Shown here piece by piece: positions 3,516 through 19,818 of a DNA stretch of 64,000 nucleotides; positions within the stretch are counted from its first letter, which is position 1; each line of letters begins with the position of its first letter. The stretch comes from Alloprevotella sp. Lineage in GTDB: Bacteria > Bacillota > Clostridia > Christensenellales > Aristaeellaceae. The stretch lies in contig CAVEOA010000002.1 of NCBI GenBank assembly GCA_963617205.1, positions 22,289 through 86,288 of the forward strand, in the 5' to 3' direction. The translations under genes and the position numbers were made by a program. The notes under the pieces are model-generated. The model saw only the letters and a list, made by a program, of their open reading frames with translations. It was not told where the DNA came from and searched no databases.

Positions 3516-3756
3516 GCGTTTCCCTCCCCTCGAACCATCACATGCAAAATTCAGCAATCATTTCTATATTATTGCACATAATCTTGTAGAACTTTAGCAA
3601 TACTCTTTTCAACTATACCATGCTTTCCGGCGAAAAGCAAGCGGAATAGACACGACTGCCTCAGCGCGCCGCCGCAATCAATCAAACAGACCTGCGCTTT
3701 TGACTGCTGCATGCCTACTGATGAGGCGATGGAGCTGATGTTGTGCAGCCTGTCGG

Positions 3757-4269: not shown

Positions 4270-4790
4270 TTTCGATTCCTTCCTTCGTCAATGTACGGCG
4301 TCTGCCTGCCTTCTCCGGAAAGAAGAAGGGTCAGGAAGCTGTTCTTGATCTCCACTGAACCGCACAGATAGCTTTCGCCGATAATCAGCGTCGGAACAAG
4401 CTGACGTTCCTCGGGAATGCCCTTGCGTTCATAGTATGCCTGAATGATGGTGCCCTCGTCCGGATTCGATTTATTCAGCGCAACGAGCCTGATTTTGCTT
4501 TTGCTGCCATCCGCCAGCGTGATTTCCTCCGGCAGCCCGGCGATGATCATATCCGCGCGTTCCGAGCAATACCTGCAGGTCGGGCGATAGAAGTAGTAAA
4601 CCAGCGAATCGCCGGCATCGACGTCCGCATCAATGCCTGTATTGCTTTTGGGATGATAATCCTCCGTCTCCTCCTCGGCAGGGGCTGAACCCATGAAGGC
4701 ATTCAGTCCCTGCTCCGCAAATGCATTCGCCGTCAGGAGGAGCGCAAGCAGCATCACCAGCGCAATGCGCTTCCCTCGTCCCATCGTCAT
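4266..4790 (-). CDS. Secreted thioredoxin-fold protein with CxxC motif (thiol-disulfide oxidoreductase-like)
   Basis: Signal peptide RIALVMLLALLLTANAFA. CxxC sits in YYFYRPTCRYCSE and a cis-Pro-like VPTLIIG follows. ATG 4790 overlaps the upstream TGA (ATGA at 4787-4790). The ORF-track start at 4865 would overlap the upstream CDS. Confidence 0.7.
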   Translation of the reverse strand: MTMGRGKRIALVMLLALLLTANAFAEQGLNAFMGSAPAEEETEDYHPKSNTGIDADVDAGDSLVYYFYRPTCRYCSERADMIIAGLPEEITLADGSKSKIRLVALNKSNPDEGTIIQAYYERKGIPEERQLVPTLIIGESYLCGSVEIKNSFLTLLLSGEGRQTPYIDEGRNRN

Positions 4791-6406
4791 TGCACCCGAT
4801 AGCGGTACAGCACGCGTGTCTGCACCTGACTTCCTTCGAGCGGCGTGTCCTGCCAGGCAGACCAATCGCCGTTGACCGTACGCGTTTCAACCTGTCTCGT
4901 ATCGCTTTGGCCAATCCAGTTCGTCGACCAATCGCTCCAAGAACCCCAGCCCTGATAGATATACTGCGTTGTCTTCGTGCGGGAACGGTACATGGTCACC
5001 TGAGTGGTCTCCGTCTTCGTGGAGGATTTTTCATTATACCATGATGAGCCGTCCGGCGCCTTATACCAATAGCAGCCGCCTTTTGTCCCCACTCCTGTAT
5101 ATCTGGTCGTGGAGCTTCTGTATTTCCAGCCGATTACACTCGTCACCACAGAAGGTGACTGCGTCGTCACATCGATGCAGCTGTAATAGAGCATGCCGGG
5201 ATAGTCGCGATGATAGTATTCCCAGCGGGAATAGTTCCAAACCGTCACTTCCTTCTCAACGTTCTGTGTGGTCGTTTCAACCTCCAGCGTAGCAGAACCG
5301 TAAATCGGCGTTTCAGAATAACCAGACCACTCGCCGTACACTACTTGCGCGTACCAGCCGCTGCCGGTCTGGGTTTCCGCGCTCGTCTTGGTGACAAAAT
5401 CACGGTAGCGATACTCGGTGGTTGCGGTTCTGTTGCGGTACTGCGTCTTTATGTCCACAATCGTCACGCCATTCGGCACGGTTTCCACCCAGTCCGAATA
5501 TACGACAGGCTTCGGGGTCGGCGTTGCCGTAATCACAGGCTTCGGGGTCGGCGTTGCCGTAATCACAGGCTTCGGGGTCGGCGTTGCCGTAATCACAGGT
5601 GTCGGCGTTGCCGTAATCACAGGCTTCGCCGTGACCTTCGGCACGTAATAAACGGTCGGCTTCGGGGTTGCCGTCGGTTCAGGCGTTGGTGTAATCAAAC
5701 TATCGGCATATTCCTTTGTAACAATATCGTACATTACCTTTGCCGGCTCATATTCGCCCTTAATCTGTGCAAGAAGCCTAGCCGCATCCTCTAAATTACC
5801 CTCTCCATAGGCTTTCAGCGCATCGACATAAACATCTTCATTGCTCGCAGCAGGTTGCCGGCCAATCATTAAAGACGTCATTCTTTCACGCGCATCATGG
5901 AAATCGAAGCACCTGAGATACAGCTCCGTTGCCAAGTCGATGTCTTTGTTGGCCTCCGCTTTTCGTCCATTGATATAGTCTCTGATTGTCGATACGGGAA
6001 CGATGCTGATCTCTCCGTCATCGATATTGCAATTTTCTTTCATGTATGCGACAAGTCCGTCTTCCTTTGCCTCGAGGTAATTGACGAACTGCTTTTGCAG
6101 CTCCATCGCCCTTACATACATTTCAGCGGTTTCAAGATCATCCTTTTCAATAATATACTGTACGGCTGTGGAATACATGATCAGATAAGAGCTGTATCCC
6201 TTGTTTCCACACATTTTAAAATCCGCAATGATATTATTGATATCCAGCCCTGAGTTCTTGGGATTGCTCATGTAGAGATTCAGATTCTTGATGGTCGTCG
6301 CATAGTTGTTTTCCATTGTTGTCTCCGCAGAAATCGCCACCGCAGAAACGTTCAGGCAGCAAAGCAGGGTCACCGCCGCAAGCAGCACCGACAATATACG
6401 TTTCAT
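4787..6406 (-). CDS. Secreted protein: helical TPR-like N-domain, Pro/Thr-rich repeat linker, W/Y/T-rich beta C-domain
   Basis: Signal peptide MKRILSVLLAAVTLLCCLNVSAVA. The linker is PVITATPTPK repeated about 4 times. The C-terminal half has recurring YRYR and WSxW motifs (EYRYRDF, WGSWSDWSTNW, GDWSAWQDTP, LYRYRVQ). No family name recognised. Confidence 0.7.
   Translation of the reverse strand: MKRILSVLLAAVTLLCCLNVSAVAISAETTMENNYATTIKNLNLYMSNPKNSGLDINNIIADFKMCGNKGYSSYLIMYSTAVQYIIEKDDLETAEMYVRAMELQKQFVNYLEAKEDGLVAYMKENCNIDDGEISIVPVSTIRDYINGRKAEANKDIDLATELYLRCFDFHDARERMTSLMIGRQPAASNEDVYVDALKAYGEGNLEDAARLLAQIKGEYEPAKVMYDIVTKEYADSLITPTPEPTATPKPTVYYVPKVTAKPVITATPTPVITATPTPKPVITATPTPKPVITATPTPKPVVYSDWVETVPNGVTIVDIKTQYRNRTATTEYRYRDFVTKTSAETQTGSGWYAQVVYGEWSGYSETPIYGSATLEVETTTQNVEKEVTVWNYSRWEYYHRDYPGMLYYSCIDVTTQSPSVVTSVIGWKYRSSTTRYTGVGTKGGCYWYKAPDGSSWYNEKSSTKTETTQVTMYRSRTKTTQYIYQGWGSWSDWSTNWIGQSDTRQVETRTVNGDWSAWQDTPLEGSQVQTRVLYRYRVQ
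5505..5630. repeat. In-frame 30-bp tandem repeat (3 identical copies, one 24-bp variant, one partial copy)
   Basis: The unit acaggcttcggggtcggcgttgccgtaatc occurs at 5505, 5535 and 5565 with 100 percent identity. Copy 4 at 5595 lacks 6 bp. The array encodes the PKPVITATPT linker of the 4787-6406 protein. Confidence 0.95.
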
Positions 6407-6444: not shown

Positions 6445-8076
6445 TTATTGAATGGTTCCGTTCATGTTGAACAGCAGTCCCTTGGAAGAGTAAACCCGAA
6501 GCTCGTAGTTTTGTCCGCTCACCAGGCTTTCCTTTGCCTGATTCAGCACCTCATCCAGCCGCACGAAGAGCAGATTCTGCCCGAAAATGCCACAGCCGCC
6601 GTCTTTCGCCGTCATCGTGACGATAGCTGTCTTTGTTCCGCACAGGATTGCCACCTTGCAGCTATCGATGGGCTCCGGAAATCCGTTGGCGGCAGACAAA
6701 TGGAGATACACGCCCTGTCCGTTGCCTTGCAGCTGCGCGACCGGCAGATTGCTGCCAGAGAGCATCCGCGTCAGCAAAGATTCCTGCATCAGCTTTTCAT
6801 GCTGGTCCGCGCCGTCATAGCCGCAATCCTTTGGATACCAGAAGAGCAGCCCTGTCATCTGTCCGTAATCCGTCGGGTCCTTTTCGAGCGTCAGCATGGC
6901 GGTTGAAGCCGCCTGTACGGTTTGATGCTGGTGAATCACACCGACAGCCGCCGCTGCAACGAGGACAACGACCATGACGATGGTGAGCAGCGTCCTTCTT
7001 TTCTTCCGTTTTTCCTCTTCGTTTTGCCTTCGCACGATTTCGTCCAGGTCATCGGTGATGCTGGCGTTCCGAGCCGCTGCCTGTGCATCCTCTGTCGCAG
7101 GCGGCTCTATCCTTTGTTCCGGCTGTTCGGGAATGACGCTCTCATCCTCATCCGGCCTATTCACCTTGCCTGCAAGCGAATCCGTCTGCGTTTCCGTTAC
7201 GCTCTCCCTTTGCTGATAGCGCCATTCTGGCGACGGATTTGCCTGTATTTTCTCTAATTCCTCAATAACCTCCCTGATGTTTTCCGGCCTGTCCTCCGGA
7301 TCTTCCGCCGTCATCTGCGCAGCAAACCGCCGCAGCGAGCTGCTCGTACCGTCCTGCTGCCCTTCAAGCAGCCGCTGAATCGTGCGTCCAAGGGCGTAGA
7401 TGTCTGTTTTCGGGCTCATCGTCCCGGAACGTCTCTCCGGCGCCTCGTAATCAGGCGTACCGCCCTGCCGCTGTCCATCTGTTTCCACCAGAAACGCTGA
7501 TACGCCGAAATCGCCGAGCTTGTAGATATGATCCCGCAGCCAGAAGATATTATCCGGCTTCACATCGCCGTGGATAATGGGCTTCGGCTGATGATAATGG
7601 CAGGTCTCCAGCGCCTTCGCGACGCACAGCGCAATCTGGATAATCCTGTCCTCGTTCATCGGCGTATCGGAAAGCACATTCTTGAGCGGCGTCAGCTTTT
7701 CCTCGCGGATCATCAGCATTGCGCCGGGTCTTCCCTCTGCCTTCACCTCTTCAAAGTCAAGGCAGTTCAGGATGTACGCCTCGCCCTGCAGCTGCTGCAT
7801 GATTCTGATTTCATCGCGGCACTGGGCAACCATTCTTTTGTATTTCTGCTCGATCGCGTCCGCCGTCAGACCGATGCTCTTCAGGTACTTCACATCATCC
7901 GTCTCGGGCATGACACAGATGACCTTGAGCGCCGATACGGTTTTTCCCGTCTCCGTTTCTCTTGCAATCTGGTAGACGACGCTCTTTCTTCCGCTTCCCA
8001 GAATGCTCTCAATCTGCCACGTCCGCAGCATTTCGGATTGCATCACGCACGCTCTGATCTGTGTCTCTTCCATCAT
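6445..8076 (-). CDS. Hanks-type Ser/Thr protein kinase, single-pass membrane protein with about 160-aa extracytoplasmic domain
   Basis: All catalytic motifs are present: G-loop LGSGRKSVVY, Lys in VSALKV, catalytic loop IIHGDVKPDNIF, LGDFGVS, GTPDYEAPE and DPEDRP. A TM segment LLTIVMVVVLVAAAAVGVI follows a charged linker. ATG 8076 overlaps the upstream stop (ATGA). Confidence 0.85.
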   Translation of the reverse strand: MMEETQIRACVMQSEMLRTWQIESILGSGRKSVVYQIARETETGKTVSALKVICVMPETDDVKYLKSIGLTADAIEQKYKRMVAQCRDEIRIMQQLQGEAYILNCLDFEEVKAEGRPGAMLMIREEKLTPLKNVLSDTPMNEDRIIQIALCVAKALETCHYHQPKPIIHGDVKPDNIFWLRDHIYKLGDFGVSAFLVETDGQRQGGTPDYEAPERRSGTMSPKTDIYALGRTIQRLLEGQQDGTSSSLRRFAAQMTAEDPEDRPENIREVIEELEKIQANPSPEWRYQQRESVTETQTDSLAGKVNRPDEDESVIPEQPEQRIEPPATEDAQAAARNASITDDLDEIVRRQNEEEKRKKRRTLLTIVMVVVLVAAAAVGVIHQHQTVQAASTAMLTLEKDPTDYGQMTGLLFWYPKDCGYDGADQHEKLMQESLLTRMLSGSNLPVAQLQGNGQGVYLHLSAANGFPEPIDSCKVAILCGTKTAIVTMTAKDGGCGIFGQNLLFVRLDEVLNQAKESLVSGQNYELRVYSSKGLLFNMNGTIQ

Positions 8077-9467
8077 TTCGTCACTCCTGAAGCCGAGAAG
8101 ATGATTTCACCGTCCAGCAGCAGCTCAACGCACCAGTCAGCCCCTGCCGGAATGCCTTGCAGCTGATCGAACAGGTCGGCCAGATAAATGGTCATCATCG
8201 TATCCGCGTTCGTGCCCGGCAGGAACCTGACCTGATCCATCGGCCATTGACCGGCAATCCGCGCCGTACCGCAGCCTTCCACGTGAAGATAGATTGCAGC
8301 CTCCTTGCCGTCAAATGCCTCGCGATTGATTTTTCCAACTGCCTTGACAATTTCCAGATAGTATCCGTACTCTGCCAGATTTTCCTCGGAAATATCAACC
8401 GCAAAATCGTTGACTCTCTGCGCCGAGCCGGCGTTGAACAGCGTCACCGCGGGAGAGCTGCCCTTGCTGCTGCCGCGGTCAATTTCGCTGACTGCCCTGC
8501 TGTAGCTCGTCTTCCTGACGCGGAACATGCGCACATTGACCGCTTCCTCTGCGCCGATGTACGTTTCGTTCGTGTCTGCCCTGTCCACGGAGATGGCGTT
8601 GCACTCGCTCTGCGCCAGCTGCCTTGCATCGTACACGCGAATGTAATACGTGCTTCCCTGCCACAAGCCGCTGACGGAAAACGACACGTCCGCATCCGTT
8701 GTCTGAACGCTGTAGAGCGCGCAGCCATTTTCGTCAGGCGTCCATGCAACTGTTTCGCCCTTTGTAACTTCCACCGCATCTCCGCTTACATCCGGCGCTT
8801 CCGCGAAGGTGCTGACCGTGATGCGGTAATCATTGATGTGCTGCTGATTCTCCCACGCAATTTCGATGGATGACCCATCGCCGCTCTGTTTTTTCGCCGT
8901 AAAGCTCAGGACAACCGACTGCAGGGCAGCGGCAGCCTTGTCCAGTTCCTTCTGTTCCTTCTGAAGCTTCCACAGCACATCCAGCTGCTCCGACGCCATG
9001 CCGGACAGGATGGTGTACTCCCGTGCTTCCTTCAAGTCGTTTTCGGCGTTCGTCAGGTCGCCTGATGCAAGCGCCTCGCTGCCCTGCACGTACTTGATGT
9101 AGTAGACAATGTCGGGGAATTTGCTTGACGAGCAGCGCTGAAAATGCTCCGCCGCATCCGCGTACTCCTCATCCCAGAAGCACAGCCACCCCTGCGCATA
9201 ATGATAGTATTCCGCCGCATCCTTGTAGCTGCCGTACACATTTTCCGCGTAGTTCGCAACCACGTTTGAGAAGGATTTGCGCGCCTGCACCATGTTGCCT
9301 GCGGCTTCATAGGTCTTTCCGCGATTGTACTCGGCGTACATGGCCTCAAGCTTTGATGCCAGCGAATAATCATCGACGCCCGCTGCCGTTTCAGCCATGC
9401 CTGTCGAACATGCACACAGCACCAATACAATCAGCAAGAACCACGCAATCGCATTTTTCCGTTTCAT
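8073..9467 (-). CDS. Putative lipoprotein with TPR-like helical N-half and FN3/Ig-like beta-rich C-half
   Basis: Signal with a probable lipobox, LIVLVLCACSTG. The helical region has Y/A-rich TPR-like repeats (AAEYYHYAQGW, AAEHFQRC). An FN3-like stretch follows (SIEIAWEN...YRITVS...STYYIRVYD). Confidence 0.65.
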   Translation of the reverse strand: MKRKNAIAWFLLIVLVLCACSTGMAETAAGVDDYSLASKLEAMYAEYNRGKTYEAAGNMVQARKSFSNVVANYAENVYGSYKDAAEYYHYAQGWLCFWDEEYADAAEHFQRCSSSKFPDIVYYIKYVQGSEALASGDLTNAENDLKEAREYTILSGMASEQLDVLWKLQKEQKELDKAAAALQSVVLSFTAKKQSGDGSSIEIAWENQQHINDYRITVSTFAEAPDVSGDAVEVTKGETVAWTPDENGCALYSVQTTDADVSFSVSGLWQGSTYYIRVYDARQLAQSECNAISVDRADTNETYIGAEEAVNVRMFRVRKTSYSRAVSEIDRGSSKGSSPAVTLFNAGSAQRVNDFAVDISEENLAEYGYYLEIVKAVGKINREAFDGKEAAIYLHVEGCGTARIAGQWPMDQVRFLPGTNADTMMTIYLADLFDQLQGIPAGADWCVELLLDGEIIFSASGVTK

Positions 9468-9508: not shown

Positions 9509-9841
9509 TTAATCCAGCTCGTTGCTCTCTTCCGGCTTGCTTTCCGTCGGCTTTTCCGTCAGCATCTTCTGCTGTGCAGCGAGCACAAACTGGCTGGTCA
9601 CCGAGAATGTCCTGCCTTCCGGTCCCGTGTAACCCTTGAATAGGACCTCGCTGATGTTCTCCGTGTCAAACGGGCGAACCGTTTCGTCATCCTTTTCGCC
9701 CAGCGGATAGAACACGCCGACGTAATCAAAGCAATGCTCCTGAATTTTCAGGCCGTAGCCAACCACAGCGAAGCAATACTTCTTGTTCTCCTCAAGGCGC
9801 ACAATGCTCCCGATGGGAAGCATGTTTTCAGCTGTCAGCAC
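9509..9841 (-). CDS. DUF4176-family protein (T7SSb-associated accessory protein), copy 2
   Basis: Family-typical N-terminus LPIGSIVRLEENKK...DYVGVFYPLGE...ISEVLFKGY. It has a long tail ending ESNELD. Confidence 0.75.
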   Translation of the reverse strand: MLTAENMLPIGSIVRLEENKKYCFAVVGYGLKIQEHCFDYVGVFYPLGEKDDETVRPFDTENISEVLFKGYTGPEGRTFSVTSQFVLAAQQKMLTEKPTESKPEESNELD

Positions 9842-9859
9842 GAATTTTGACCTCCCCTA

Positions 9860-10648
9860 TCAATAACCAAAGATGGTGGTTTTAACGCCATTTGCAACAT
9901 AGTTAAAGCCTTTTCCGACCCATCCGCCGACTGTCCCGCCAGCCTGAGTTACCCAGGTGGTTGCGCTGTCCGGGATGATGTCGATTCCAAAGCCGTTCAA
10001 AACCGCATCAACCGTACCGATTACAGATCCTGCAGCGCTTGAACCGATACCAGTGCCAAGCGTTTCTGAGAGCGTCGTCTTGCCGCTGCGGTAATCTCCG
10101 ACAGCTTCGTTACGAACGCTCGCTATCGCATCGTCGGCATGCGTGTAAGAATGCGCCATATTTCCCGCGTTGCTGAGCATTGGAATTCCTGTAACGTCAG
10201 CTGCAATCACGCCTCCGGCACCAAACGCCGCCTCAAGCACGTCATTCGTGGTACCATTTGCAATGGCGTCAATCAGTTCGGACGCATAGCCGCCTGTGAC
10301 CACATCCAGAAGCGCCGTGACCGCCCCTGCTACGCCGCCATCCTGAAACGCTTCAATCACCTTCACGGCGGAGTCGTAAATTTCCTTTACCTTCAGCAGC
10401 TTATCCAGATACTTCGACAGCTTTTCAAACTTCTCAAAAATCGCCTTGACCGTGGCGCTGATTTTGCCCAGAACGGTTCCGCTCGTACTGCTTGCAAGGT
10501 CGCCGCCTGCTTCCGGATGCAGCTTCAGATAGCTCTCCGAGTTCTGTGCGCTTGTGAGTGCGTCCTTCGTGGTGTTCTTTGCACTTGTCGTCTGGTCAAT
10601 CAACGTCTGCAATGCTTGCGCATTATAGTCGGTTGTTACCGCCGTCAT
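9860..10648 (-). CDS. Putative T7SS substrate/effector: helical N-domain plus Gly/Ala/Ser-rich glycine-zipper C-domain
   Basis: 262 aa with no signal peptide. The helical N-terminal part is about 110 aa. The C-terminal part has GTGIGSSAAGSVIG and GGTVGGWVGKG (GxxxGxxxG). It lies directly after three small helical genes, as in LXG-type effector modules. Confidence 0.55.
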   Translation of the reverse strand: MTAVTTDYNAQALQTLIDQTTSAKNTTKDALTSAQNSESYLKLHPEAGGDLASSTSGTVLGKISATVKAIFEKFEKLSKYLDKLLKVKEIYDSAVKVIEAFQDGGVAGAVTALLDVVTGGYASELIDAIANGTTNDVLEAAFGAGGVIAADVTGIPMLSNAGNMAHSYTHADDAIASVRNEAVGDYRSGKTTLSETLGTGIGSSAAGSVIGTVDAVLNGFGIDIIPDSATTWVTQAGGTVGGWVGKGFNYVANGVKTTIFGY

Positions 10649-10671
10649 GTTCCCGCTCCTCCTGTTCTCTC

Positions 10672-10941
10672 TTAATCAAGCGTGTTCAAACGCCTTTCCG
10701 AAATCTGCTTCTCATTGTCGATGTTTTTCAGCAGCGTCTGCAGCTTCTGCAATGCCTTTTCAACCGCGTCGCTCTTCTCCGTGCACGCCTTATAGAGGTT
10801 TTGCGTATTGGCGCTCGCAATGCCCTGCTTCAAAAAGGCAAGCGCCTGCGAAAGATTGCCAATCTGCGTCTGCATGCTCGTCACAATCGACTGGCTGTTG
10901 TTTACCGCCGTCTCAAAGGCCGACAAATCAACATATGCCAT
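10672..10941 (-). CDS. Small alpha-helical T7SS-associated protein (Lap/WXG100-superfamily-like), 89 aa
   Basis: Helix-turn-helix-sized, no Trp, ends RRLNTLD. An SD-bearing 23-nt gap precedes the downstream gene. Confidence 0.55.
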   Translation of the reverse strand: MAYVDLSAFETAVNNSQSIVTSMQTQIGNLSQALAFLKQGIASANTQNLYKACTEKSDAVEKALQKLQTLLKNIDNEKQISERRLNTLD

Positions 10942-10965
10942 GGTTTTTCTCCTCCTTTTTCTCTC

Positions 10966-11268
10966 TTAAGACCCTTTAAGCACCTTCATTGCGTCCGTTT
11001 CCTTTTTGCTGAGTTCTCCGGAAAGCGTTCCGACCGCCGTTGCATACGCCTTCACCGCATCCGCAAGGCTCTGAATCTGCTCGCTGAGCTGCATGTTGTT
11101 GCTGGCGATGAAGTCCGACTTGTACTTGCTGTCCCAGGTGCTCAGCATCGCGTCAAGCTCCGTCTTAAGCTTCGCGCCGTTCTTCTTCAAGGCGTCCGAA
11201 ACGTCGTTCAGCGTGGTCAGCGCCTTGCTTACCTGCTGGCTGTCATACGAGTAGTTGGTATTTGCCAT
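10966..11268 (-). CDS. WXG100-like protein (EsxA-like, W-x-S variant), 100 aa
   Basis: The central motif LSTWDSKYKSDF aligns with the W-x-G...F pattern of EsxA-type proteins, with G replaced by S. ATG 11268 with gagaggggg upstream is preferred over the ORF-track GTG at 11274. Confidence 0.6.
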   Translation of the reverse strand: MANTNYSYDSQQVSKALTTLNDVSDALKKNGAKLKTELDAMLSTWDSKYKSDFIASNNMQLSEQIQSLADAVKAYATAVGTLSGELSKKETDAMKVLKGS

Positions 11269-11288
11269 ATGCACACGCCCCCTCTCTT

Positions 11289-11531
11289 TTATCCAAGCGC
11301 CTTAATCTTCTTCGTGATGGTTCCGCTTGCCGACTTCGCGCTGTTCTCCGCCTCATTCGCGTCCTTGATGCTGTCATCCAGAATTTTCTGAAGCTCATTA
11401 ACCGCCATGACGCCAATGGTCGACGTGTTCACGCTGGACAGCGCCTTGGAAGCCTCCTGCATCTTCAGTTCCATGTCTTCCAGATAGCGCTTTGCCGATG
11501 CCATGTCCGCGCTGTTATACTTGTCGCTCAT
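11289..11531 (-). CDS. Small alpha-helical T7SS-associated protein (Lap-like), 80 aa
   Basis: All-helical composition with no Trp or Cys. An N-terminal YNSAD (YxxxD pattern) is present. It is tightly packed, 12-14 nt from its neighbours. Confidence 0.5.
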   Translation of the reverse strand: MSDKYNSADMASAKRYLEDMELKMQEASKALSSVNTSTIGVMAVNELQKILDDSIKDANEAENSAKSASGTITKKIKALG

Positions 11532-11543
11532 CCTGCTTCCTCC

Positions 11544-11861
11544 TTAGTCAAGCTCGTTCGATTCGTGCATCTTCGGGGCAAATTCGCCCGCTGCGGCTCT
11601 GCGCTCCGCATCAGCCATCGCCTTCGTCATCCCCTGCTGAAACTCGGGGTACTTCTCGTACTGGTAGCCGTTGAACACCACCTGTTCGATGGCTTCCTCG
11701 TCAAAGAGGACGATGGGCATATCACCCAATCCCAGCGGATACGGAACAGAAGCGTACTTCCGGATGTTTCCGGCTGCTCCCACACGCAGATACCCCGTAA
11801 CCATGCGCTTCTCGCGATGATCCTTGATTGTCACAACGCTCCCGATTGGCAGAAACTCCAT
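11544..11861 (-). CDS. DUF4176-family protein, copy 1
   Basis: MEFLPIGSVVTIKDHREKRMV...VPYPLGL...IEQVVFNGYQ. The tail ends HESNELD. Confidence 0.75.
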   Translation of the reverse strand: MEFLPIGSVVTIKDHREKRMVTGYLRVGAAGNIRKYASVPYPLGLGDMPIVLFDEEAIEQVVFNGYQYEKYPEFQQGMTKAMADAERRAAAGEFAPKMHESNELD

Positions 11862-11880: not shown

Positions 11881-12123
11881 TCAGCACAGCATGAGTACTG
11901 AGCCGTTTTTCACATTCAGGCTGCGCACCGACTCGTTCAGGTCGAGCACCGCATGTCTCTGATTGTCGCAAAGCACGCAGGTCACCAAATCAATGTACGG
12001 CTGCGCATTCATCTGCTTAACGATGTCGGCAAGCATATCCCGGAAGGGCACATCCGCCGGCAGCGTAAACGTTTCGCATTGACCCGTGCCCGGCACCACA
12101 ATATGGGCAAGAATATGTTCCAT
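11881..12123 (-). CDS. esaB: EsaB/YukD-like ubiquitin-fold T7SS protein
   Basis: 80 aa, immediately downstream of essC (6-nt gap). A beta-grasp-like sequence is present (ILAHIVVPGTGQCETFTLPADVPFRDMLADI...NGSVLML). Confidence 0.7.
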   Translation of the reverse strand: MEHILAHIVVPGTGQCETFTLPADVPFRDMLADIVKQMNAQPYIDLVTCVLCDNQRHAVLDLNESVRSLNVKNGSVLMLC

Positions 12124-12129
12124 TCAGCT

Positions 12130-15100
12130 TCACTCCTTCGGCAGATAAACCTTGATGGGGAAACGGTTTTCCGGAATGACGAAGCCTTCGCCGGGCTTCA
12201 TGTATTCATTCGTCCGGTCATACGTCAGCGAGCAGTTCCACGGGTCAAAGCTGGACAGCGTATTGCCCGTTGTGATGATGTGGCAGTTCTGCGCAAACGC
12301 CCTGACCGAATCCGGCAGTGAATTTGCATTGATCTGCGTGGAAATCAGAACGCGGATGCTGTACTTGCTTCCGAGGCGCACTGCGGTCAGAAGCTGCTTC
12401 GACAGCTGCTGGTCCACCTTTTCCCCGTCAAACCACCGGTCCACGTCATCCAGCACAATGCACAGCGGCTTCATGGTGCCTGCAATCGCGCGCCAGTTGT
12501 TTTCGTCCTCCCAGCCTGAAACGGCGCGCTGCGCACGCTTTTGCTCGCCGAAGCGGTCGTCCATATCGGACGTAAAGCCGCGCTGCCGGTCAACCGGCGT
12601 ATTGCTTGACAGGAAGGCTACATGACCGTTGACGCCCTTCCACCTTGCCTGGTCGGCTTCGCTGGCAATCACGAAAATATCTCCGTCATCCCCTGCGCAA
12701 AGCTTCGCCAGCGACATCAGCAGCGACGTCTTGCCGGTTTCGCGTTTGCCTGCAACAAGCACCGTCGGCTTTTCGTAGAAGTCCAGGAAAACAGGCTTCA
12801 GCGATTCATGCCGGAATGCGACCGGCACCTCTGCCTTTTTCTCCTTCACGCCATACGCGGCAAGCACCTGCGCACCAAATTCTGCCGGAACACGCGGCAT
12901 TTTGAGCACCGGCGCACTGCACGGCGGAAGGGCTTCACCGTATTCATGCAGCTTTTCCGCACGCTTCCGATCCTCTGCCAAGCCAAACGCAAGCCCCGTC
13001 TGAAATTCGAGACAGCCCTGCTTGCTGTTCATCACGCCGCGACCGGGCAGATCTGCCGGAATCGCCTGTATGCTGCTCGTGCGGACATTCAGCGCATCCG
13101 CATATTCCGACGCACTGCCCATGCCGAGCGGAATGACCTGCATCGCCTCCAGCAGCCGCCGGTTGATTTCGCCCATAGCATTCGCCGTCACGATGAAATA
13201 GATGCCGCGTCCCGAGGCCGTTTTAATCAGGTTTTCCACCTTTTCCTGCTCGTTGTCGTTCAGCAGCTCATACCATTGCGCAAAGCGATCCACCGCCACA
13301 ATCAGCGCAGGCATAACAGGCTCGCCGTCCTCCTCGCATGCGCGGTTGTAGCTTGCAAAGCTGTCCGTCTTTTTCTCCGCGAATGTCGCGTCGCGTGCGG
13401 TCATCAGCTCCTCCAGCCGATAATATGCGGCACGCTCCTCACGGCTTTCCCACTTGGTCAGCACATCGCAGACGTTGGGAATTGTCTCAATGGACTTCAG
13501 CGCCGTGCCCGAGAAGCTGAGCACCATCATTTGCACCTGCGCCGGCGAATAGCGTCGGCTGACTGCATAGGCGAGCGTCTGCAGGAACATCGTCTTGCCG
13601 CTCTGGCTGTGCCCGATAATCGCCATGTTCCGCAGCGCAGACACATTCAGCGATGCCGTCAGATACCGCTGATTCGCCACATCATCCAGCATACCGATGA
13701 CGGCGCTGATGCCGTCCTCCGTGTTTTCCTCCGCCGATGGCAGCGCAGTCAGGTCAATCACATTCGGCAACTCCGGCAGCCACAGCTTTCCAGCTCCCTG
13801 ATAGCCATACGTTTCTGCCGTCCTGTTGATTTCATCCAACACGGCGCTCATCTGGCTCTTTGCTTTTTTCGTTGGTGCATTTGCCGCAGCAACCATCTTT
13901 TTCCTGCGCCCGAGCGAATCCATCAATGCAGGCTTTGCGGCGGGATCCCCCTGCTCCGGCTCATAGGCGGCGCCGCAATACGCCGTCTGAATCTGTTCAA
14001 ACAGCTCATCATTGCCCACCTGTACGAAGCCGCGTCCGTTTCCCTTGATGAACGCCGCATCCGGTCGGTGCAGCATATCGTTCGAGTCCTCGCGTGTCCG
14101 CACCTGCAGGCAGATATGGAAGCGGCTGTTGCTCCAGATTTCAGGACCCACCTTGTTTGACGGGCGCTGCGTTGCCAGCAGAAGATGCAAGCCGACCGAG
14201 CGTCCCACGCGTGCCGTGCTGATCAGCTCGCTCATGAAATCCGGCAGCTCGTCCATCAGCTCCGAGAACTCGTCAATCACAATCAGGATATGGGACAGCT
14301 TCCTGCTGTCCGCAAGCGGATTCACATAGCGAATGTACGCATCGATATTATCGACATCGTACCTTTTGAATAATCTCTCGCGCCGTTTCACCTCGCCGCG
14401 AAGCGAATACAGCGCCCGGTTGATGCTCCGCTTTCCCTGCAGGTTGTCTACAAAGCCGATGCAGTGCGGCATGTTTCTGAAGTTGTTGAAGGTGCCGCCG
14501 CCCTTGTAGTCAATCAGAATAAACTGCATCTGCTCCGGCGAATAGTTCAGCGCGAGCGAAAGCAGCAGCGTCTGCAGCAGCACGCTCTTGCCCGAGCCGG
14601 TTGTACCCGCCATGATGCCGTGCGGTCCATGCTGCTTGTCCGACAGGTCAAGCGGGAAAATGCGCTCGCCAGCCATCTTTCCCAGATAGGCGATGATGTC
14701 CCTGCTCGTGCTGTTCTGCTCCCACCGAAGGCGGATTCCCAGCTGCTCTGTCTCGCGAACGCCATACATCTCCAGGAATGTCACGCGATCCGGAATTTTC
14801 CGATTGCCGATTAAACCCGTTTCGCGGCAGCCGTTGAGCGTATCGATGGTTTGCCAGAATTGACTCTCCTCGCAGGATTCCGGCGTCACGCTCTGCGTTG
14901 TTTTCTCTGCGTAATTGTAGAGCTTTTTCTCCCGCGCATTGTATACAACCTTGCATTCCTTGGGAAGCTCCTCTTCCTTTTCCGCGCAAACGCAAATCGA
15001 AAAGCCGGCGTTCGAGGCAATGATGTTGGAAAACAGCACATGCCGCCACAGATAGGTGCTGTCCTCGAAAATGACGATGTAGTGCGGCAGCATGGCGCTC

Positions 15101-16647
15101 TTTTCGTTGTCCTTTTCCAGCCGGAGCATCAGCACATCGTTGAGCTGCGACAGGATTTCCATCGCATCCGCGTAATTGTCCGAAATCAGCTGACCCTCGC
15201 TGCCGTCATACAGCTGCATGTGCGGCAGCGCACGCAGGAAACGCCACTTCTCGCCGTTGCCCGGCTTTGCGATGAGGGCAATCCGCACATCCTCGGGCGC
15301 ATGCATGACGGACAGCTGTAAAATCAGCGTTTCAATCAGCGAAGATGCTTCCTCTGAGACGATGCCGAACAGCTTGTCATTGAGCAAATCAACCGTAATC
15401 GGCGCATCGTGCAGCATACTGAATTTTTCCTGCAGGCGGTACGGCGCATTCTTTTCGTCCTCAGGCACCTCGCCCATCTTCAATTTCGGCACGGAAATGC
15501 TGTACGGCAGCCTGACCTGTCCTCTCCCTATGCGTATTTTGAGAAACGTCTCGCTGTTCGGCGTTCTTTCCCATACGGCGGAGCTCAACTGCGCCGCATC
15601 GCTGCAGCATTGCTGCCATGCCGGATAATATTTTTCCAGCGTGTCCAGAATCTCCTCAACGCCCTTGTTGATTTCCTTTTCTGTTCGCCCAAGGCGCTTG
15701 ATATAATCCGCCATCGCTTCCTTGAACTGCTTTTTTCTCATGTGCCTGCTGTAGCAATAGTTCATCAGCGACCAGCCGACCGCCAGCACAGAGGAGGACA
15801 CCATCATCACCGTGCCATAGCCGCGATAGCTCGACCCGCTCAGCATGCTGCCCAGCAGCATCGGCAAGCTCATCGTCAGCGCCGGACCCATGCTCAGAAG
15901 AAGTGGCTGCGTCCTGTTTTCCTCAAGCACCGGCGTCGCTTCAATCTCGTACTTTTTCTCTTCTATTTTCGGCATGAAGCGCGGCGGTCGGGCGATATCC
16001 CGATACAGGGGAGCCGCCTTCGCCCGGAACGTCACGATATGCGGTATGCTCGCTGCCTGCAACGCAACGTGTCCGCCGCCGATGCCGCTGACGCCAATCA
16101 CGTTGCCGCCAAGATACACAATCTGCAATCCGCTTGCGAAGGCAATCAAATCGCCCGTGCGGATTTCCTTTTCTTCATTGCGGATGAACCATCCATTGAT
16201 AAACGAACCGTTCTTGGATGTATCGGCATAGCTTGCATGGTCTCCTGACACCTTCAGGACGCCATGATGATTAGAGAGGCGCTTGTCCGGCGAGCAAACG
16301 CCGCAGTCCTCATGACGTCCGATTTGCAGCGTCTCTCCGGTCAGGACATACTTGCCGAACCGGACGTCCTCCTGCAAAATTTCGGAGCAGTAAATGCCGA
16401 TTATCGCGTCCTCATGCTTCAGAATCAGGCTCATCTCATGATGCAGACACCGTTCCCGTGTATCCTCGCCGTCATTCCATGTCATTTCCTCAGGCTTGAC
16501 CGCGTACCACTGATGATCCATGGCAACAAACGTCACCTGATATTTCTCATAGGACGGCGCTGCCGCAGTGATGGCGTCCTTCTCGACGTCCGGCAGACAG
16601 AATATTTTTCCTCGTCCCCTGCTGTACATAACGATTCGTAGCATCAT
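12130..16647 (-). CDS. essC: EssC/YukB-type FtsK-SpoIIIE T7SS ATPase with N-terminal FHA domains
   Basis: 1505 aa. FHA-like region LQIGRHEDCGV...NHHGVLKV...DTSKNGSFINGW. Two TM segments are present. There are three P-loops: GTTGSGKSVLLQT, GHSQSGKTMFLQT and GKRETGKTSLLMS. Confidence 0.9.
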   Translation of the reverse strand: MMLRIVMYSRGRGKIFCLPDVEKDAITAAAPSYEKYQVTFVAMDHQWYAVKPEEMTWNDGEDTRERCLHHEMSLILKHEDAIIGIYCSEILQEDVRFGKYVLTGETLQIGRHEDCGVCSPDKRLSNHHGVLKVSGDHASYADTSKNGSFINGWFIRNEEKEIRTGDLIAFASGLQIVYLGGNVIGVSGIGGGHVALQAASIPHIVTFRAKAAPLYRDIARPPRFMPKIEEKKYEIEATPVLEENRTQPLLLSMGPALTMSLPMLLGSMLSGSSYRGYGTVMMVSSSVLAVGWSLMNYCYSRHMRKKQFKEAMADYIKRLGRTEKEINKGVEEILDTLEKYYPAWQQCCSDAAQLSSAVWERTPNSETFLKIRIGRGQVRLPYSISVPKLKMGEVPEDEKNAPYRLQEKFSMLHDAPITVDLLNDKLFGIVSEEASSLIETLILQLSVMHAPEDVRIALIAKPGNGEKWRFLRALPHMQLYDGSEGQLISDNYADAMEILSQLNDVLMLRLEKDNEKSAMLPHYIVIFEDSTYLWRHVLFSNIIASNAGFSICVCAEKEEELPKECKVVYNAREKKLYNYAEKTTQSVTPESCEESQFWQTIDTLNGCRETGLIGNRKIPDRVTFLEMYGVRETEQLGIRLRWEQNSTSRDIIAYLGKMAGERIFPLDLSDKQHGPHGIMAGTTGSGKSVLLQTLLLSLALNYSPEQMQFILIDYKGGGTFNNFRNMPHCIGFVDNLQGKRSINRALYSLRGEVKRRERLFKRYDVDNIDAYIRYVNPLADSRKLSHILIVIDEFSELMDELPDFMSELISTARVGRSVGLHLLLATQRPSNKVGPEIWSNSRFHICLQVRTREDSNDMLHRPDAAFIKGNGRGFVQVGNDELFEQIQTAYCGAAYEPEQGDPAAKPALMDSLGRRKKMVAAANAPTKKAKSQMSAVLDEINRTAETYGYQGAGKLWLPELPNVIDLTALPSAEENTEDGISAVIGMLDDVANQRYLTASLNVSALRNMAIIGHSQSGKTMFLQTLAYAVSRRYSPAQVQMMVLSFSGTALKSIETIPNVCDVLTKWESREERAAYYRLEELMTARDATFAEKKTDSFASYNRACEEDGEPVMPALIVAVDRFAQWYELLNDNEQEKVENLIKTASGRGIYFIVTANAMGEINRRLLEAMQVIPLGMGSASEYADALNVRTSSIQAIPADLPGRGVMNSKQGCLEFQTGLAFGLAEDRKRAEKLHEYGEALPPCSAPVLKMPRVPAEFGAQVLAAYGVKEKKAEVPVAFRHESLKPVFLDFYEKPTVLVAGKRETGKTSLLMSLAKLCAGDDGDIFVIASEADQARWKGVNGHVAFLSSNTPVDRQRGFTSDMDDRFGEQKRAQRAVSGWEDENNWRAIAGTMKPLCIVLDDVDRWFDGEKVDQQLSKQLLTAVRLGSKYSIRVLISTQINANSLPDSVRAFAQNCHIITTGNTLSSFDPWNCSLTYDRTNEYMKPGEGFVIPENRFPIKVYLPKE

Positions 16648-16911: not shown

Positions 16912-19818
16912 TCACGATTCATGAACATACGCAAGCATCGGTTCAAGCTCTTCCCAAAGGACAAAACCGCTGTCCCGCATGGCTTTATATTCCTCAAGAA
17001 CGGCATCGATGTACTCCTGTGCCTTGTCCTTCTTGTTCATGGCATCGTATGCCATCGCAATCTGGAAATGAATCGTCACGCGCCCGACCTCATCCGGCTG
17101 TTCGCACTCATTCATCCGTTTCAGGCACTCCTCAAGTATCTGCAGCGACTGCTTGTATTTTCCTGCTTCGTAATACGCATAGCCGCGTTGATCCAGTGCG
17201 TGAAGCGTCAGCCAGGACGTACGGTCGAGGTTCCTTATTTTGCACAGCAGCTGGTAATTGACCTGCAGCGCCTTCTGCGGCTGTTTTGCGCGCCGGTAGG
17301 CCTGTGCCAGATGAAGCAGCTCGTCCTTGTCGTTTTTCAATCTGTCATCCGTATTCTTCTCGTATCCTTCGATATAACGCTGCGCATACTTTTCTACCCT
17401 TTGCCACTGTCTGCCGACCGCGCACGCTTCCATCAGGTAAGCGCAGGAAATCCAGCTGTCATTTAGTTCCGAATCGTCTCCCATTTCTTTTATTATTTTT
17501 TCGATAAGCCGTTCAAATTTGTCAAGTTGCTCCTCCTGCGGAATGGCCGTGCCGAACATAACGCTGTAAAAAGCCTGTAGTTGAAGCTGGAAACAAAACG
17601 ACTTTTGCTCAGGGTCCATCTTCTCCGCCTGTGCCAGAAGCTCGCTGCACTTCACTACATCGCCGCTGTTCATGAGCACATTCCGCGCTTCTTCGATCAG
17701 CATAAACCCGCGTGGAATCGAGTTCGGGCATTCTTCCAGAATACGGCTGATCAGCGCATTTGTTTTTTTATTCCCAATGCTGTTGCCCATCTGAATGAAC
17801 ACAAACACACCCATTGCGGCAAGCGGATTTGCAAAGTCAATTTTCTCTGCTTCCTTCAGCAGCGCATCCGCATCGTTTTCTTCTCCGGAACTTTCATATT
17901 TTGCCATTCTGATCGCAATTTCAAAGCAATGCGCAATAAAACGTGTTTCCTTATTTGAACTTTTCCCGCAAAACTGCACCATTCTTTTCTGAATCTGGCG
18001 ATAGCTGTGCATCACAGCATACACCATCGCGCCAAGCGCAATTTCCTCCGGCACTTCCATCCCGTTCGCCACCAGAAAGGAAACAATGCTTGCACCGGCG
18101 TACGCCTCCTGCTTATAGCAGAACAGCTCGTCCCCATGCTGTGCGAACAGCTCCCGAATGCGTTTTTCCAGCTTCGGATAATCCTGAAGCCTGCCGAATT
18201 CCGTGCGCATCGCCTCGGCGATAACCGGCTGCATCGAATAGCCATGCCGATTCAGCTCCAGCCAGCCATTCAGATAGCCGCTGTAGAGCATCGATGGCAC
18301 CTTTTGGGCATCGGGCTCCGCGTCCAGCAGGAGATTTTCGATGCTTCTTGGCGGCCAGCTCACAGCATCCAGCGCTGAAAACAGCACCAGCAGCCTGCGC
18401 ATCTGGGGCGTCACGACGGTCGTCGCAAAGACCCTCCTGAGCTTCTCGATAAAGCTCTCGCTTTCGCCGCGATGAATCAGTTGCAGATTCTGATAGCCGT
18501 TCGCGTCAATTTCTTCGTTCAGCGCAGCGACTGTCAGCGAACGCATTTTCAATGCCTTGCCCAGCAGAATCACTGCCAGCGGATGCCCCTGCATGCGGTG
18601 GTGCAGCCGCTCAAATTCCTCTCTGCTGTCCGACAACGGGAAGCCGCTGCTGACCTCCAGCAGCTTTCTCGTTTCATCCACGCCCAAAGACGCCATAGGA
18701 AATTCTGAAAAGCCCTCCAGCTCTCGCTGACGGGACGTCACCAGCACATCGCAGCCGAAGCACGCCACCTTTTCCCATTGCTCCGGATTTCGGTCAATCC
18801 TTGCATTGTCAATCACCAGCAGCGTCCTGCCGCTGTACGGCTTGTCCAGTAGCTCTCCGACGCTGCGAAGGATCTTCTCCGGCTCCTCCTCTCGAAGCTC
18901 CGAAAACGCCTTTTGAAATGCCGCAGCCAAATCTCCCTGATCCTGCGCAAACGCCAGTCGGCTGTATCGACCCAGCTCTCCGCAGCGCACCAGCACCTGC
19001 CGGACAAGCTCCGTTTTTCCCATGCCGCCGGCGCCCGAAACGAGCACCTTTCCTCTTTTTTCCAGACGCGCATACAGCAAATCGACCACGTTTTCCGGAC
19101 AGGGCACGTAAGCCTCCTTCGCAAGCGCCTGCTTACAAGCCTCGCACTCATGCGACGTCAGCACCACCGGCACAAAGCGTCCGAACGTGACATGGCGGTA
19201 TTTCATGTACAGCTGGCTGGCTGAGAACTCATCGCGTTTCCGCAAAAGCGCAATCCGCTTGCTGTCCATATGGCTGCCAAGGAAAGCATAAACCGTCAGC
19301 CATGCCATCTGCACGCTGCAGAAAAAGCCCTGACTGGGGTAGTCCATCTCAAACGCTTCATTCGCCTCATCGCGCAGGGTTACCAGATGCGCCTGAATTT
19401 CGGACGTCATCGCGCTGTCGCCTGCTATGCACTGATCTTCAAACGCGCACAGCGACTGCATAAACAGGAACCAGTCCGGCTCCTGCCGATTCAGCAGCTC
19501 CAGCCATGCGACCGTCAGATGCATAAACTTCGTGCTGTCAAGCTCCTTGGAGAAGGTCTCGTAAAGCGGCGACATCACGCCTGCGGTGCCGCTGCGGTTC
19601 ATGATATTGCTCAGGCTTCGCGAGCGCTTCTCCTTCGTGCTCTCCAGCATGGCCAGCGCGTCATCATCCAGAATCGTCATCAGCAGCTCACGCCAGAAGT
19701 GAATCAGCGTCGTCTTCGCAAGCCGGATTGCGGCGGTTGATTTGTCCCCGTCTATGCCGTTGCTAAGCCAACGATAAATCTCACGCGGTGTCAGCAGTCG
19801 ATTGCCTTCTGTTTTCAT
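16912..19818 (-). CDS. STAND NTPase: unassigned about 250-aa N-domain, NB-ARC (AP-ATPase) module, C-terminal TPR array
   Basis: Walker A VSGAGGMGKTEL, Walker B LLVIDNA, RNBS-B-like DVLVTSR and GLPL-like QGHPLAVILLG. The C-terminus has multiple TPR-like repeats (YYEAGKYKQSLQILEECL, IAMAYDAMNKKDKAQEYID). Confidence 0.8.
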   Translation of the reverse strand: MKTEGNRLLTPREIYRWLSNGIDGDKSTAAIRLAKTTLIHFWRELLMTILDDDALAMLESTKEKRSRSLSNIMNRSGTAGVMSPLYETFSKELDSTKFMHLTVAWLELLNRQEPDWFLFMQSLCAFEDQCIAGDSAMTSEIQAHLVTLRDEANEAFEMDYPSQGFFCSVQMAWLTVYAFLGSHMDSKRIALLRKRDEFSASQLYMKYRHVTFGRFVPVVLTSHECEACKQALAKEAYVPCPENVVDLLYARLEKRGKVLVSGAGGMGKTELVRQVLVRCGELGRYSRLAFAQDQGDLAAAFQKAFSELREEEPEKILRSVGELLDKPYSGRTLLVIDNARIDRNPEQWEKVACFGCDVLVTSRQRELEGFSEFPMASLGVDETRKLLEVSSGFPLSDSREEFERLHHRMQGHPLAVILLGKALKMRSLTVAALNEEIDANGYQNLQLIHRGESESFIEKLRRVFATTVVTPQMRRLLVLFSALDAVSWPPRSIENLLLDAEPDAQKVPSMLYSGYLNGWLELNRHGYSMQPVIAEAMRTEFGRLQDYPKLEKRIRELFAQHGDELFCYKQEAYAGASIVSFLVANGMEVPEEIALGAMVYAVMHSYRQIQKRMVQFCGKSSNKETRFIAHCFEIAIRMAKYESSGEENDADALLKEAEKIDFANPLAAMGVFVFIQMGNSIGNKKTNALISRILEECPNSIPRGFMLIEEARNVLMNSGDVVKCSELLAQAEKMDPEQKSFCFQLQLQAFYSVMFGTAIPQEEQLDKFERLIEKIIKEMGDDSELNDSWISCAYLMEACAVGRQWQRVEKYAQRYIEGYEKNTDDRLKNDKDELLHLAQAYRRAKQPQKALQVNYQLLCKIRNLDRTSWLTLHALDQRGYAYYEAGKYKQSLQILEECLKRMNECEQPDEVGRVTIHFQIAMAYDAMNKKDKAQEYIDAVLEEYKAMRDSGFVLWEELEPMLAYVHES

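Follow-up and report, generated by a model that had tools for sequence, protein, structure and literature searches.

Within a 64,000-nucleotide (nt) stretch of contig CAVEOA010000002.1 from the Alloprevotella sp. assembly GCA_963617205.1 (hereafter the window), we identified a type VII secretion system (T7SS) locus in which three proteins, judged from their sequences across syntenic lineages, share a conserved C-terminal Leu-[Asp/Glu]. These are two diverged DUF4176 paralogues (DUF4176a and DUF4176b) and an 89-residue helical hairpin, and the conserved element is both shorter and broader than the hexapeptide ESNELD in which the two paralogues of the window end. We consider it plausible, if somewhat short of probable, that these tails are short linear motifs by which the proteins dock onto a conserved core component of the secretion machine. 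The DUF4176 family is an established chaperone family; what is new is the shared tail, which is not described in the literature searched. All genes of the cluster are encoded on the minus strand, those bearing the tails being:

11544..11861, minus strand: DUF4176a, 105 residues, PF13780, directly after yukD; predicted fold 1-90, linker 91-98, tail 99-105 (HESNELD).
11547..11564, minus strand: ESNELD codons of DUF4176a, GAA TCG AAC GAG CTT GAC (stop codon 11544-11546).
10672..10941, minus strand: 89-residue helix-turn-helix protein (WXG100/Lap-like), ending RRLNTLD; NTLD codons at 10675-10686.
9509..9841, minus strand: DUF4176b, 110 residues, PF13780, directly after the candidate toxin gene; Pro- and charge-rich linker, then ESNELD.
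9512..9529, minus strand: ESNELD codons of DUF4176b, GAG AGC AAC GAG CTG GAT (stop codon 9509-9511).

The original prediction had claimed that two otherwise diverged DUF4176 paralogues end in an identical hexapeptide written in differing codons, and that the 89-residue protein ends in NTLD; open reading frames (ORFs) and PF13780 matches bear out each of these points. The C-termini read ...PKMHESNELD in DUF4176a, ...SKPEESNELD in DUF4176b and ...RRLNTLD in the hairpin, and both paralogues exceed the PF13780 gathering cut-off (62.6 and 61.6 vs 25 bits). BLASTP aligned the two paralogues at 33% identity over 105 columns, and their post-domain regions were found to be essentially unrelated apart from the final six residues. 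Core-domain similarity further places them in different DUF4176 subclades, the nearest divergent orthologue of DUF4176b, P0160, ending EESNTLE. At the nucleotide level 6 of the 18 positions encoding ESNELD differ, all synonymously and including a switch between the Ser codons TCG and AGC. A chance match of the two hexapeptides is excluded. With the composition of DUF4176 tails (0.086 per position) the probability of a six-position match is ~4e-7, and among small DUF4176 representatives clustered at 50% identity the last five or six residues are common to none of 6,441 pairs. Across the window, only 3 of 271 six-frame ORFs of at least 60 residues end L[DE], corresponding to DUF4176a, DUF4176b and the 89-residue protein.

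Close homologues of these proteins are few, with single-sequence searches returning three and two relatives. A genome scan with alignment A2 recovered one close and seven distant loci, a metagenome scan gave one irrelevant locus, and contig look-ups yielded syntenic loci from nine lineages (A to I, B' being a sub-row of B). Identity of the EssC-type ATPase to that of the window lineage is 94% in L005, 78% in L016 and 37-43% in L028, L030 and L033, and DUF4176a adjoins YukD in all syntenic loci. The tails are given below in the order DUF4176a / hairpin / DUF4176b, a dash marking a contig that stops before the gene:

Lineage A (window, L002-5): HESNELD / RLNTLD / [EV]ESNELD
Lineage B (L016/17): APTELD / LNTLD / ESNTLE
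Lineage B' (L018-20): APTELD / LNTLE / ESNTLE
Lineage C (L001): QPPLD / - / -
Lineage D (L021): VSLSLE / SVDLT / -
Lineage E (L014): GTDLQ / - / -
Lineage F (L015): SEQLD / - / -
Lineage G (L028): KTELE / LGVLE / SVQLE
Lineage H (L030-32): VTELE / LGVLE / PAMLE
Lineage I (L033): AQLEE / TRLND / VTELT

Right alignment of seven DUF4176a lineages placed Leu at position -2 in all seven, followed by Asp in five, Glu in one and Gln in one, while the remaining tail positions reached a pairwise identity of at most 0.33. When three distant loci were included, Leu was retained at -2 in 8/9 DUF4176a, 5/6 hairpin and 5/5 DUF4176b sequences, compared with 6.5% of 108 small DUF4176 representatives from other contexts, of which 0.9% terminate in L[DE]-COOH. 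Given that the upstream linkers are scrambled, the tails had ample time to diverge. The terminal residue also tracks lineage across the three proteins, being D/D/D in A, D/D/E or D/E/E in B, and E/E/E in G and H. Full ESNELD on both paralogues is confined to lineage A; DUF4176b ends ESN[ET]L[DE] in A and B, and DUF4176a ends x-T-E-L-[DE] in B, G and H, as opposed to ESNELD in A. The conservation in orthologues by which the original prediction proposed to check the tail was thus found for the Leu-acid core, whereas the preceding ESN was not conserved. The motif was not found in model organisms, and the host lineage is uncultured.

Four Leu codons (CTT, CTG, TTG and TTA) are in use across the lineages, together with both Asp codons (GAT and GAC) and both Glu codons (GAA and GAG), and the constraint therefore acts on the peptide rather than on DNA or RNA. 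Genes downstream of the tail genes have their ribosome-binding sites past the tail-gene stop codons; with the tail codons varying synonymously, a DNA- or RNA-level constraint exerted through ribosome binding or coupling was rejected. Also rejected was gene conversion as the source of the hexapeptide, given the nucleotide differences between the two copies, their unlike Ser codons, and the position of the DUF4176a codons one step from those encoding APT in its orthologue. Comparison of DUF4176a codons between lineages A (GAA TCG AAC) and B (GCG CCG ACC) indicates that the changes from Pro to Ser and from Thr to Asn each took a single step. The most economical reading, from few taxa, is that the tail of DUF4176a converged on that of its paralogue through point mutation. 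The original proposal that the shared ending reflects selection acting on the peptide, and not a recent copying of DNA, is well supported by a core kept to ~40% EssC identity, by varied codons and by randomised linkers. It seems to us quite improbable that the ending lacks a binding function altogether, whether as a stability feature, in which an acidic end avoids C-terminal degron recognition, or as the residue of an old gene conversion between the paralogues. Acidic C-termini are indeed poor ClpXP and Tsp substrates, and the strictly conserved core amounts to just two residues. However, an anti-degron has no need of an invariant Leu, the ending recurs on a non-homologous helical protein, and its conservation spans lineages at ~40% EssC identity. 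Furthermore, the Ser codon TCG of DUF4176a is one step from the orthologous Pro codon CCG, unlike AGC of DUF4176b, which argues for convergence by point mutation and not for a copied tract.

An AlphaFold2 model of DUF4176a, built from a 108-sequence alignment, reached a mean predicted local distance difference test (pLDDT) score of 89.4 and comprises five strands, a helix (residues 71-90) and a linker, with residues 99-105 (HESNELD) falling below a pLDDT of 50 in the monomer. The predicted anatomy is hence a folded chaperone domain with a short linker and a disordered, exposed tail, and since the model places disorder after a confident fold, the tail would be available for binding. Foldseek searches with this model returned 9DCS as the top match (TM-score 0.70, E 1.7e-5), followed by 9MNO, 9DCR and 9DCT (LcpA/LtcA/LtcB), and the family alignment profile (A3, with DUF4176a first) matched 9DCS at 2e-27. 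The DUF4176 fold is assigned from the DUF4176a model alone, DUF4176b being assigned by Pfam; NCBIfam provided no match for DUF4176a, DUF4176b or the 262-residue candidate toxin encoded between them.

These structural data also bear on the suggestion that the tail acts inside the pre-secretion complex, packing on the toxin or on the basic C-terminus (K-I-K-A-L-G) of an 80-residue protein of the operon, or forming a lid over the groove of the DUF4176 dimer. The genes for all three tail-bearing proteins surround a single toxin gene, orthologues of the 80-residue protein share a conserved basic ending, and in the 9DCS crystal 103 of 104 residues are modelled in one chain, such that the C-termini of small DUF4176 proteins can be ordered. 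Nevertheless, we consider such packing unlikely: the AlphaFold2 monomer gives the tail no structure, the C-terminus of the toxin varies between strains whereas the tail does not, and the tail is polar while the Ltc groove binds an amphipathic hydrophobic helix (PMC12478183).

For the 89-residue protein, a single-sequence AlphaFold2 model (pLDDT 86.5) predicts a helix-turn-helix with helices at residues 6-43 and 47-88, in which L85-N-T-L-D89 forms the last turn of helix 2 (Leu-x-x-x-Asp). Only in this protein is the motif situated at the C-terminal end of helix 2, the placement of an export arm. No family was found for it in Pfam or NCBIfam, and its best Foldseek match, Bacillus anthracis EsxB, was not significant (E 0.57); "WXG100/Lap-like" is accordingly a description of its modelled structure and not a family membership. 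Its orthologues end NTLD, NTLE, GVLE, VDLT and RLND, and a hydrophobic-x-x-x-Asp/Glu spacing is found in five of six lineages (LNTLD, LNTLE, LGVLE twice, and VSSVD shifted by two).

DUF4176 proteins have been experimentally defined as chaperones of LXG toxins (Ltc/Lcp, 2025; PMC12478183, PMC12482557). They form dimers, bind and stabilise a disordered amphipathic segment of the cognate toxin, and are not themselves exported (PMC12478183), with similar conclusions for the DUF4176 proteins of Streptococcus suis (PMC12482557) and for LcpE of S. gallolyticus. Small members of 70-130 residues are the least understood. The authors of the 2025 work remark that some unknown mechanism has to link release of the chaperone to export at the machine (PMC12478183), and work from 2026 describes the connection of Ltc and Lap proteins to EssC as not understood (PMC13355648). 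The paralogues of the window share both Pfam family and fold with the Ltc/Lcp proteins (S. intermedius LtcA, LtcB and the small MQE10_09270; PDB 9DCR, 9DCT, 9DCS and 9MNO), which likewise occur in T7SS effector modules beside small helical partners and a toxin. One copy likewise comes immediately after the toxin gene, an arrangement also given for DUF4176 genes in the S. suis paper and seen in two other loci described below (L023 and L026). Unlike Ltc/Lcp modules, loci of the window type carry two diverged paralogues, each with a conserved Leu-acid ending, one of which is a fixed neighbour of yukD and not of the toxin, and an active-type kinase replaces EssB.

C-terminal signals are known in T7SSs. 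The last seven residues of CFP-10 bind the D3 domain of EccC, and the extreme C-terminus of YukE is required for secretion; described export-arm motifs include YxxxD/E (T7SSa), FxxxD in Lap1, VxxxD in EsxA and a C-terminal NKxxDD in LapA3 (PMC10765036, PMC10801868, PMC13355648). The S. suis DUF4176 protein lacks a C-terminal YxxxD/E motif (PMC12482557). As with CFP-10/EsxB and the export arm, the T7SS operon of the window encodes a small helical hairpin whose very C-terminus bears a short acidic motif. Unlike these signals, the ending is found also on globular, presumably non-exported chaperones, as a disordered tail with no hydrophobic residue at -5. The DUF4176 and T7SS literature searched contains no description of a shared C-terminal tail, nor any of C-terminal tails on T7SS chaperones.

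We tentatively favour the reading of these tails as docking motifs because they appear exposed and show a pattern of conservation hard to explain other than by a binding site, because they are common to proteins that should travel together to the machine, and because the hairpin ending lies at a known T7SS signal position. Under this reading, a flexible linker ending ...x-[E/T]-Leu-[Asp/Glu]-COOH on the two DUF4176 chaperones, together with the corresponding ending of the WXG100-like hairpin, would be recognised at a single site of one conserved core component. By analogy with the binding of EsxB/CFP-10 to EccC D3, the C-terminal ATPase region of EssC is the most likely reader. The idea of an EssC-docking or export signal put forward in the original prediction agrees with the disordered chaperone tail, with the export-arm position of the hairpin ending and with what is known of T7SSs. 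YukD and the cytoplasmic domain of the kinase are as conserved as EssC in the sequences compared and are also candidates. The tails would bring the chaperone-bound toxin complex to the machine and keep the chaperones there during removal and export of the toxin, the hairpin ending occupying the position of the known export arm or C-terminal signal. We infer that the motif is a binding site, that one receptor serves all three proteins, that this receptor is EssC, and that the chaperones remain cytoplasmic; the 262-residue candidate toxin is a probable client of DUF4176b. Type III secretion chaperones, which remain inside the cell, dock effector complexes at the export ATPase or sorting platform. 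The logic proposed here is the same, in that the chaperone would be retained, hand its client to the secretion ATPase and be released there, although the folds and machines are unrelated and type III docking does not proceed through a C-terminal linear tag.

A more elaborate version, which we regard as possible but doubtful, is that the chaperone tails mimic the last turn of the export arm of their EsxB-like partner. One pre-secretion complex would then carry three copies of the tag, a multivalent signal that recruits the toxin complex and gates both activation of the ATPase and stripping of the chaperones. Mimicry of an export-arm ending by chaperones is not reported in the literature searched, and if true this would represent the first defined contact between Ltc-type chaperones and the T7SS motor. 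A conserved, exposed tag of 2-6 residues, common to both chaperones and the export-arm protein of one module, would offer a small and precise handle on the step that couples chaperone to machine.

Small DUF4176 proteins of other clades (P0169-P0248; P0190, P0197, P0209, P0216, P0225 and P0256) possess conserved C-terminal motifs of their own, following hypervariable and often poly-acidic linkers. Endings among these clades include [DN]LE[HY]L-COOH (20 clusters), [VLIM]D[TI]LE-COOH, GAF-COOH, YPK[LF]x[LI] and YEFDENGVIIK. In tandem two-domain DUF4176 proteins the ending is [IV]S[IV]xM[DE]. Two other clades were viewed in genomic context, corresponding to an LXG-style effector module downstream of an EssC gene (L023), whose clade ends [VLIM]D[TI]LE-COOH, and to an orphan toxin module (L026). 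In both loci the small DUF4176 gene (L023, 10001-10303; L026, 10001-10402) directly follows the effector gene, and no STAND or TPR gene was found nearby. The presence of [VLIM]D[TI]LE and [DN]LE[HY]L endings in other DUF4176 clades points to a receptor common to T7SSs rather than to a lineage-specific accessory. Taken together, C-terminal linear motifs on small DUF4176 proteins look common but clade-specific and may help to sort these proteins into functional classes, while one ending across three operon proteins is, among the sequences compared, a feature of the kinase-type system studied here. A tail as a general feature of small DUF4176 proteins was rejected in favour of one specific to a clade or system.

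Several observations weigh against a shared docking motif. Across the family, a hydrophobic-acid C-terminus is not enriched, being present in 9 of 114 small representatives against 6.6 expected (p = 0.22; 310 of 2000 shuffles reached 9). The helical, Lap-like neighbours in L023 and L026 lack the tail of their chaperone. A core of two residues is a small target for a specific receptor, and the chaperone tails share just their final two to four residues with the hairpin. They also lack its hydrophobic-x-x-x-acid spacing, position -5 being occupied by S, P, Q, G, K or V. The endings of lineage I are looser (QLEE, RLND and ELT). Finally, binomial p-values for the Leu and acid counts take related lineages as independent and thus overstate significance.

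The remaining genes of the cluster, from which candidate receptors may be drawn, are as follows:

16912..19818, minus strand: STAND nucleoside triphosphatase (NTPase), 968 residues, upstream of essC; NB-ARC (3e-7) and C-terminal TPR (TPR_12, 4e-8).
12130..16647, minus strand: EssC-type FtsK/SpoIIIE ATPase with N-terminal FHA domain; Pfam FtsK_SpoIIIE 3e-57, FHA 1e-9.
11881..12123, minus strand: YukD/EsaB ubiquitin-like T7SS component, a candidate receptor; Pfam PF08817, 31.1 bits.
11289..11531, minus strand: 80-residue helical protein, without acidic tail; orthologues terminate K[AS][LI][GK].
10966..11274, minus strand: WXG100-like (EsxA-like) protein, ~100 residues, without tail; WXG100 and ESAT-6 matches weak and below cut-off.
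9860..10648, minus strand: 262-residue candidate toxin/effector, with helical N-terminus and Gly-rich C-terminus; toxin role putative.
8073..9467, minus strand: exported protein with signal peptide and TPR and fn3-like regions; weak TPR_6, TPR_12 and fn3 matches.
6445..8076, minus strand: membrane Ser/Thr kinase in place of the EssB pseudokinase; Pfam Pkinase 3e-25.

On the minus strand these genes are ordered STAND NTPase, EssC, YukD, DUF4176a, 80-residue protein, WXG100-like protein, 89-residue protein, 262-residue protein, DUF4176b, exported TPR/fn3-like protein and membrane Ser/Thr kinase. If the 262-residue protein is a toxin, the order from EssC to DUF4176b is that of a T7SS effector module. 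By its gene content the cluster is a type VII secretion locus in which a full kinase domain replaces the EssB pseudokinase of canonical T7SSb, resembling described kinase/FHA-type variants (Garrett et al., PMC11217815). EssC and YukD are retained in every syntenic locus extending to their position, and the exported TPR/fn3-like protein and the kinase in all long syntenic loci. Orthologues of the ~100-residue WXG100-like protein show weak precomputed Pfam WXG100 matches in L030-32, and a W-x-G by sequence in L021 and L028. Other operon C-termini are also conserved among orthologues in L001, L016, L021, L028 and L030, where the 80-residue protein ends in the basic K[AS][LI][GK] and YukD in L-x-L-C.

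Hsp70 and Hsp90 carry EEVD-COOH tails that are bound by TPR two-carboxylate clamps. By analogy, the original prediction offered as an alternative that the tail binds the TPR array of the neighbouring STAND protein, a cytoplasmic NTPase. Such binding could report free chaperone to a regulator, in the manner of free type III secretion chaperones. The likeness is an analogy only: both types of tail follow a flexible linker, occur on chaperones, and comprise acidic residues, a hydrophobic -2, an acidic last residue and a free carboxylate. The ending is thus EEVD-like, the STAND protein possesses NB-ARC and TPR_12 repeats, and its gene immediately precedes essC in the window, L002, L005 and L016/17, the two being 19 nt apart in L016. 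Unlike in the EEVD system, this sole nearby cytoplasmic TPR protein is not conserved with the motif. No homologue of the 968-residue STAND protein was found in the syntenic loci L028 and L030-34. In L028, L030-32 and L033 other genes take up the position before essC; Leu-Glu tails nevertheless persist on all three proteins in L028 and L030-32, and looser Leu-containing ones in L033. No DNA-binding or other output domain was detected in the N-terminal 245 residues of the STAND protein, and the TPR protein that is conserved with the tails carries a signal peptide and is not expected in the same compartment. Although a copy may lie elsewhere in those genomes, absence of the STAND gene from loci retaining the tails weakens this alternative, which we now hold to be improbable. 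The N-terminal ~245 residues of the STAND protein showed no recognisable family, and PADLOC returned nothing meaningful for it. Its partial match to the NCBIfam "FxSxx-COOH system TPR protein" (51.9 bits; cut-off 300) was rejected as membership and attributed to generic TPR similarity.

The other TPR protein of the cluster has orthologues with signal peptides, and its predicted topology places it outside the cytoplasm. In a further reading the tail-bearing proteins, or at least the hairpin, would be exported and the tail captured outside by this TPR/fn3-like protein or by the ectodomain of the kinase. Binding of C-terminal peptides is common among TPR domains, and in every long syntenic locus DUF4176b is followed by the exported TPR protein and the membrane kinase. 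The TPR matches of the exported protein are, however, weak and below Pfam cut-offs, and membrane crossing by globular DUF4176 proteins is without support. Characterised DUF4176 chaperones remain cytoplasmic (PMC12478183, PMC10801868), although retention was shown only for the large LtcA and LtcB (PMC12478183). On balance, capture outside the cell appears hardly probable.

The FHA domain of EssC, with its phosphothreonine-binding residues, and the full kinase domain point to a T7SS variant under phosphorylation control. This raises the prospect that the operon Ser/Thr kinase phosphorylates a Thr or Ser of the tail, T-E-L-[D/E] fitting a pT-x-x-D/E motif, and that the FHA domain of EssC binds the product. 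DUF4176a has Thr at -4 in lineages B, E, G and H, as does DUF4176b in lineage I, the kinase domain is conserved in the operon, and the FHA domain retains the GR, SxxH and NG residues of the phosphothreonine-binding motif. FHA domains are nevertheless phosphothreonine-specific, while both tails of the window lineage carry Asn at this position, with Ser only at -5. Thr is likewise missing from -4 in lineages C, D and F, and Leu, not Thr, is the invariant residue. Even with kinase/FHA-type T7SS variants described (PMC11217815), phosphorylation-dependent docking is in our view very improbable.

Beyond the tails, the 262-residue protein looks from its sequence like a small polymorphic toxin, with a conserved N-terminus and variable C-terminus among L005, L016 and L018-20. 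Orthologues were identified at 11202-11990 in L005, 9185-9973 in L016 and 903-1763 in L018, with a 286-residue form in L018-20. The protein had no match in Pfam, and no obvious immunity gene was found for it. In L030 a second toxin-like gene of 300 residues follows DUF4176b and ends GLVE.

Also identified was a LytTR response regulator and GHKL histidine kinase pair, linked to the T7SS variant in two distant lineages and representing candidate regulators. The pair lies downstream of the cluster in the window (1555-3557, minus strand) and in L002, and upstream of and divergent from essC in L028 (534-3900). Three further exported proteins of ~583, 174 and 145 residues, with signal peptides and no family, are encoded after the kinase (4787-6406, minus strand, and downstream in the window; 15456-18162 in L002). 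Lineages A and B both retain these proteins, which may constitute envelope components of the T7SS variant; the first, with a conserved ...YRYR[VI]Q ending, has paralogues repeated in L030. Finally, L005 (contig CAVIHU010000014.1) is a 92-94% identical copy of the locus within a metagenome-assembled genome labelled "Bacteroidaceae bacterium"; this contig, with its Bacillota-type T7SS locus, has probably been mis-binned.

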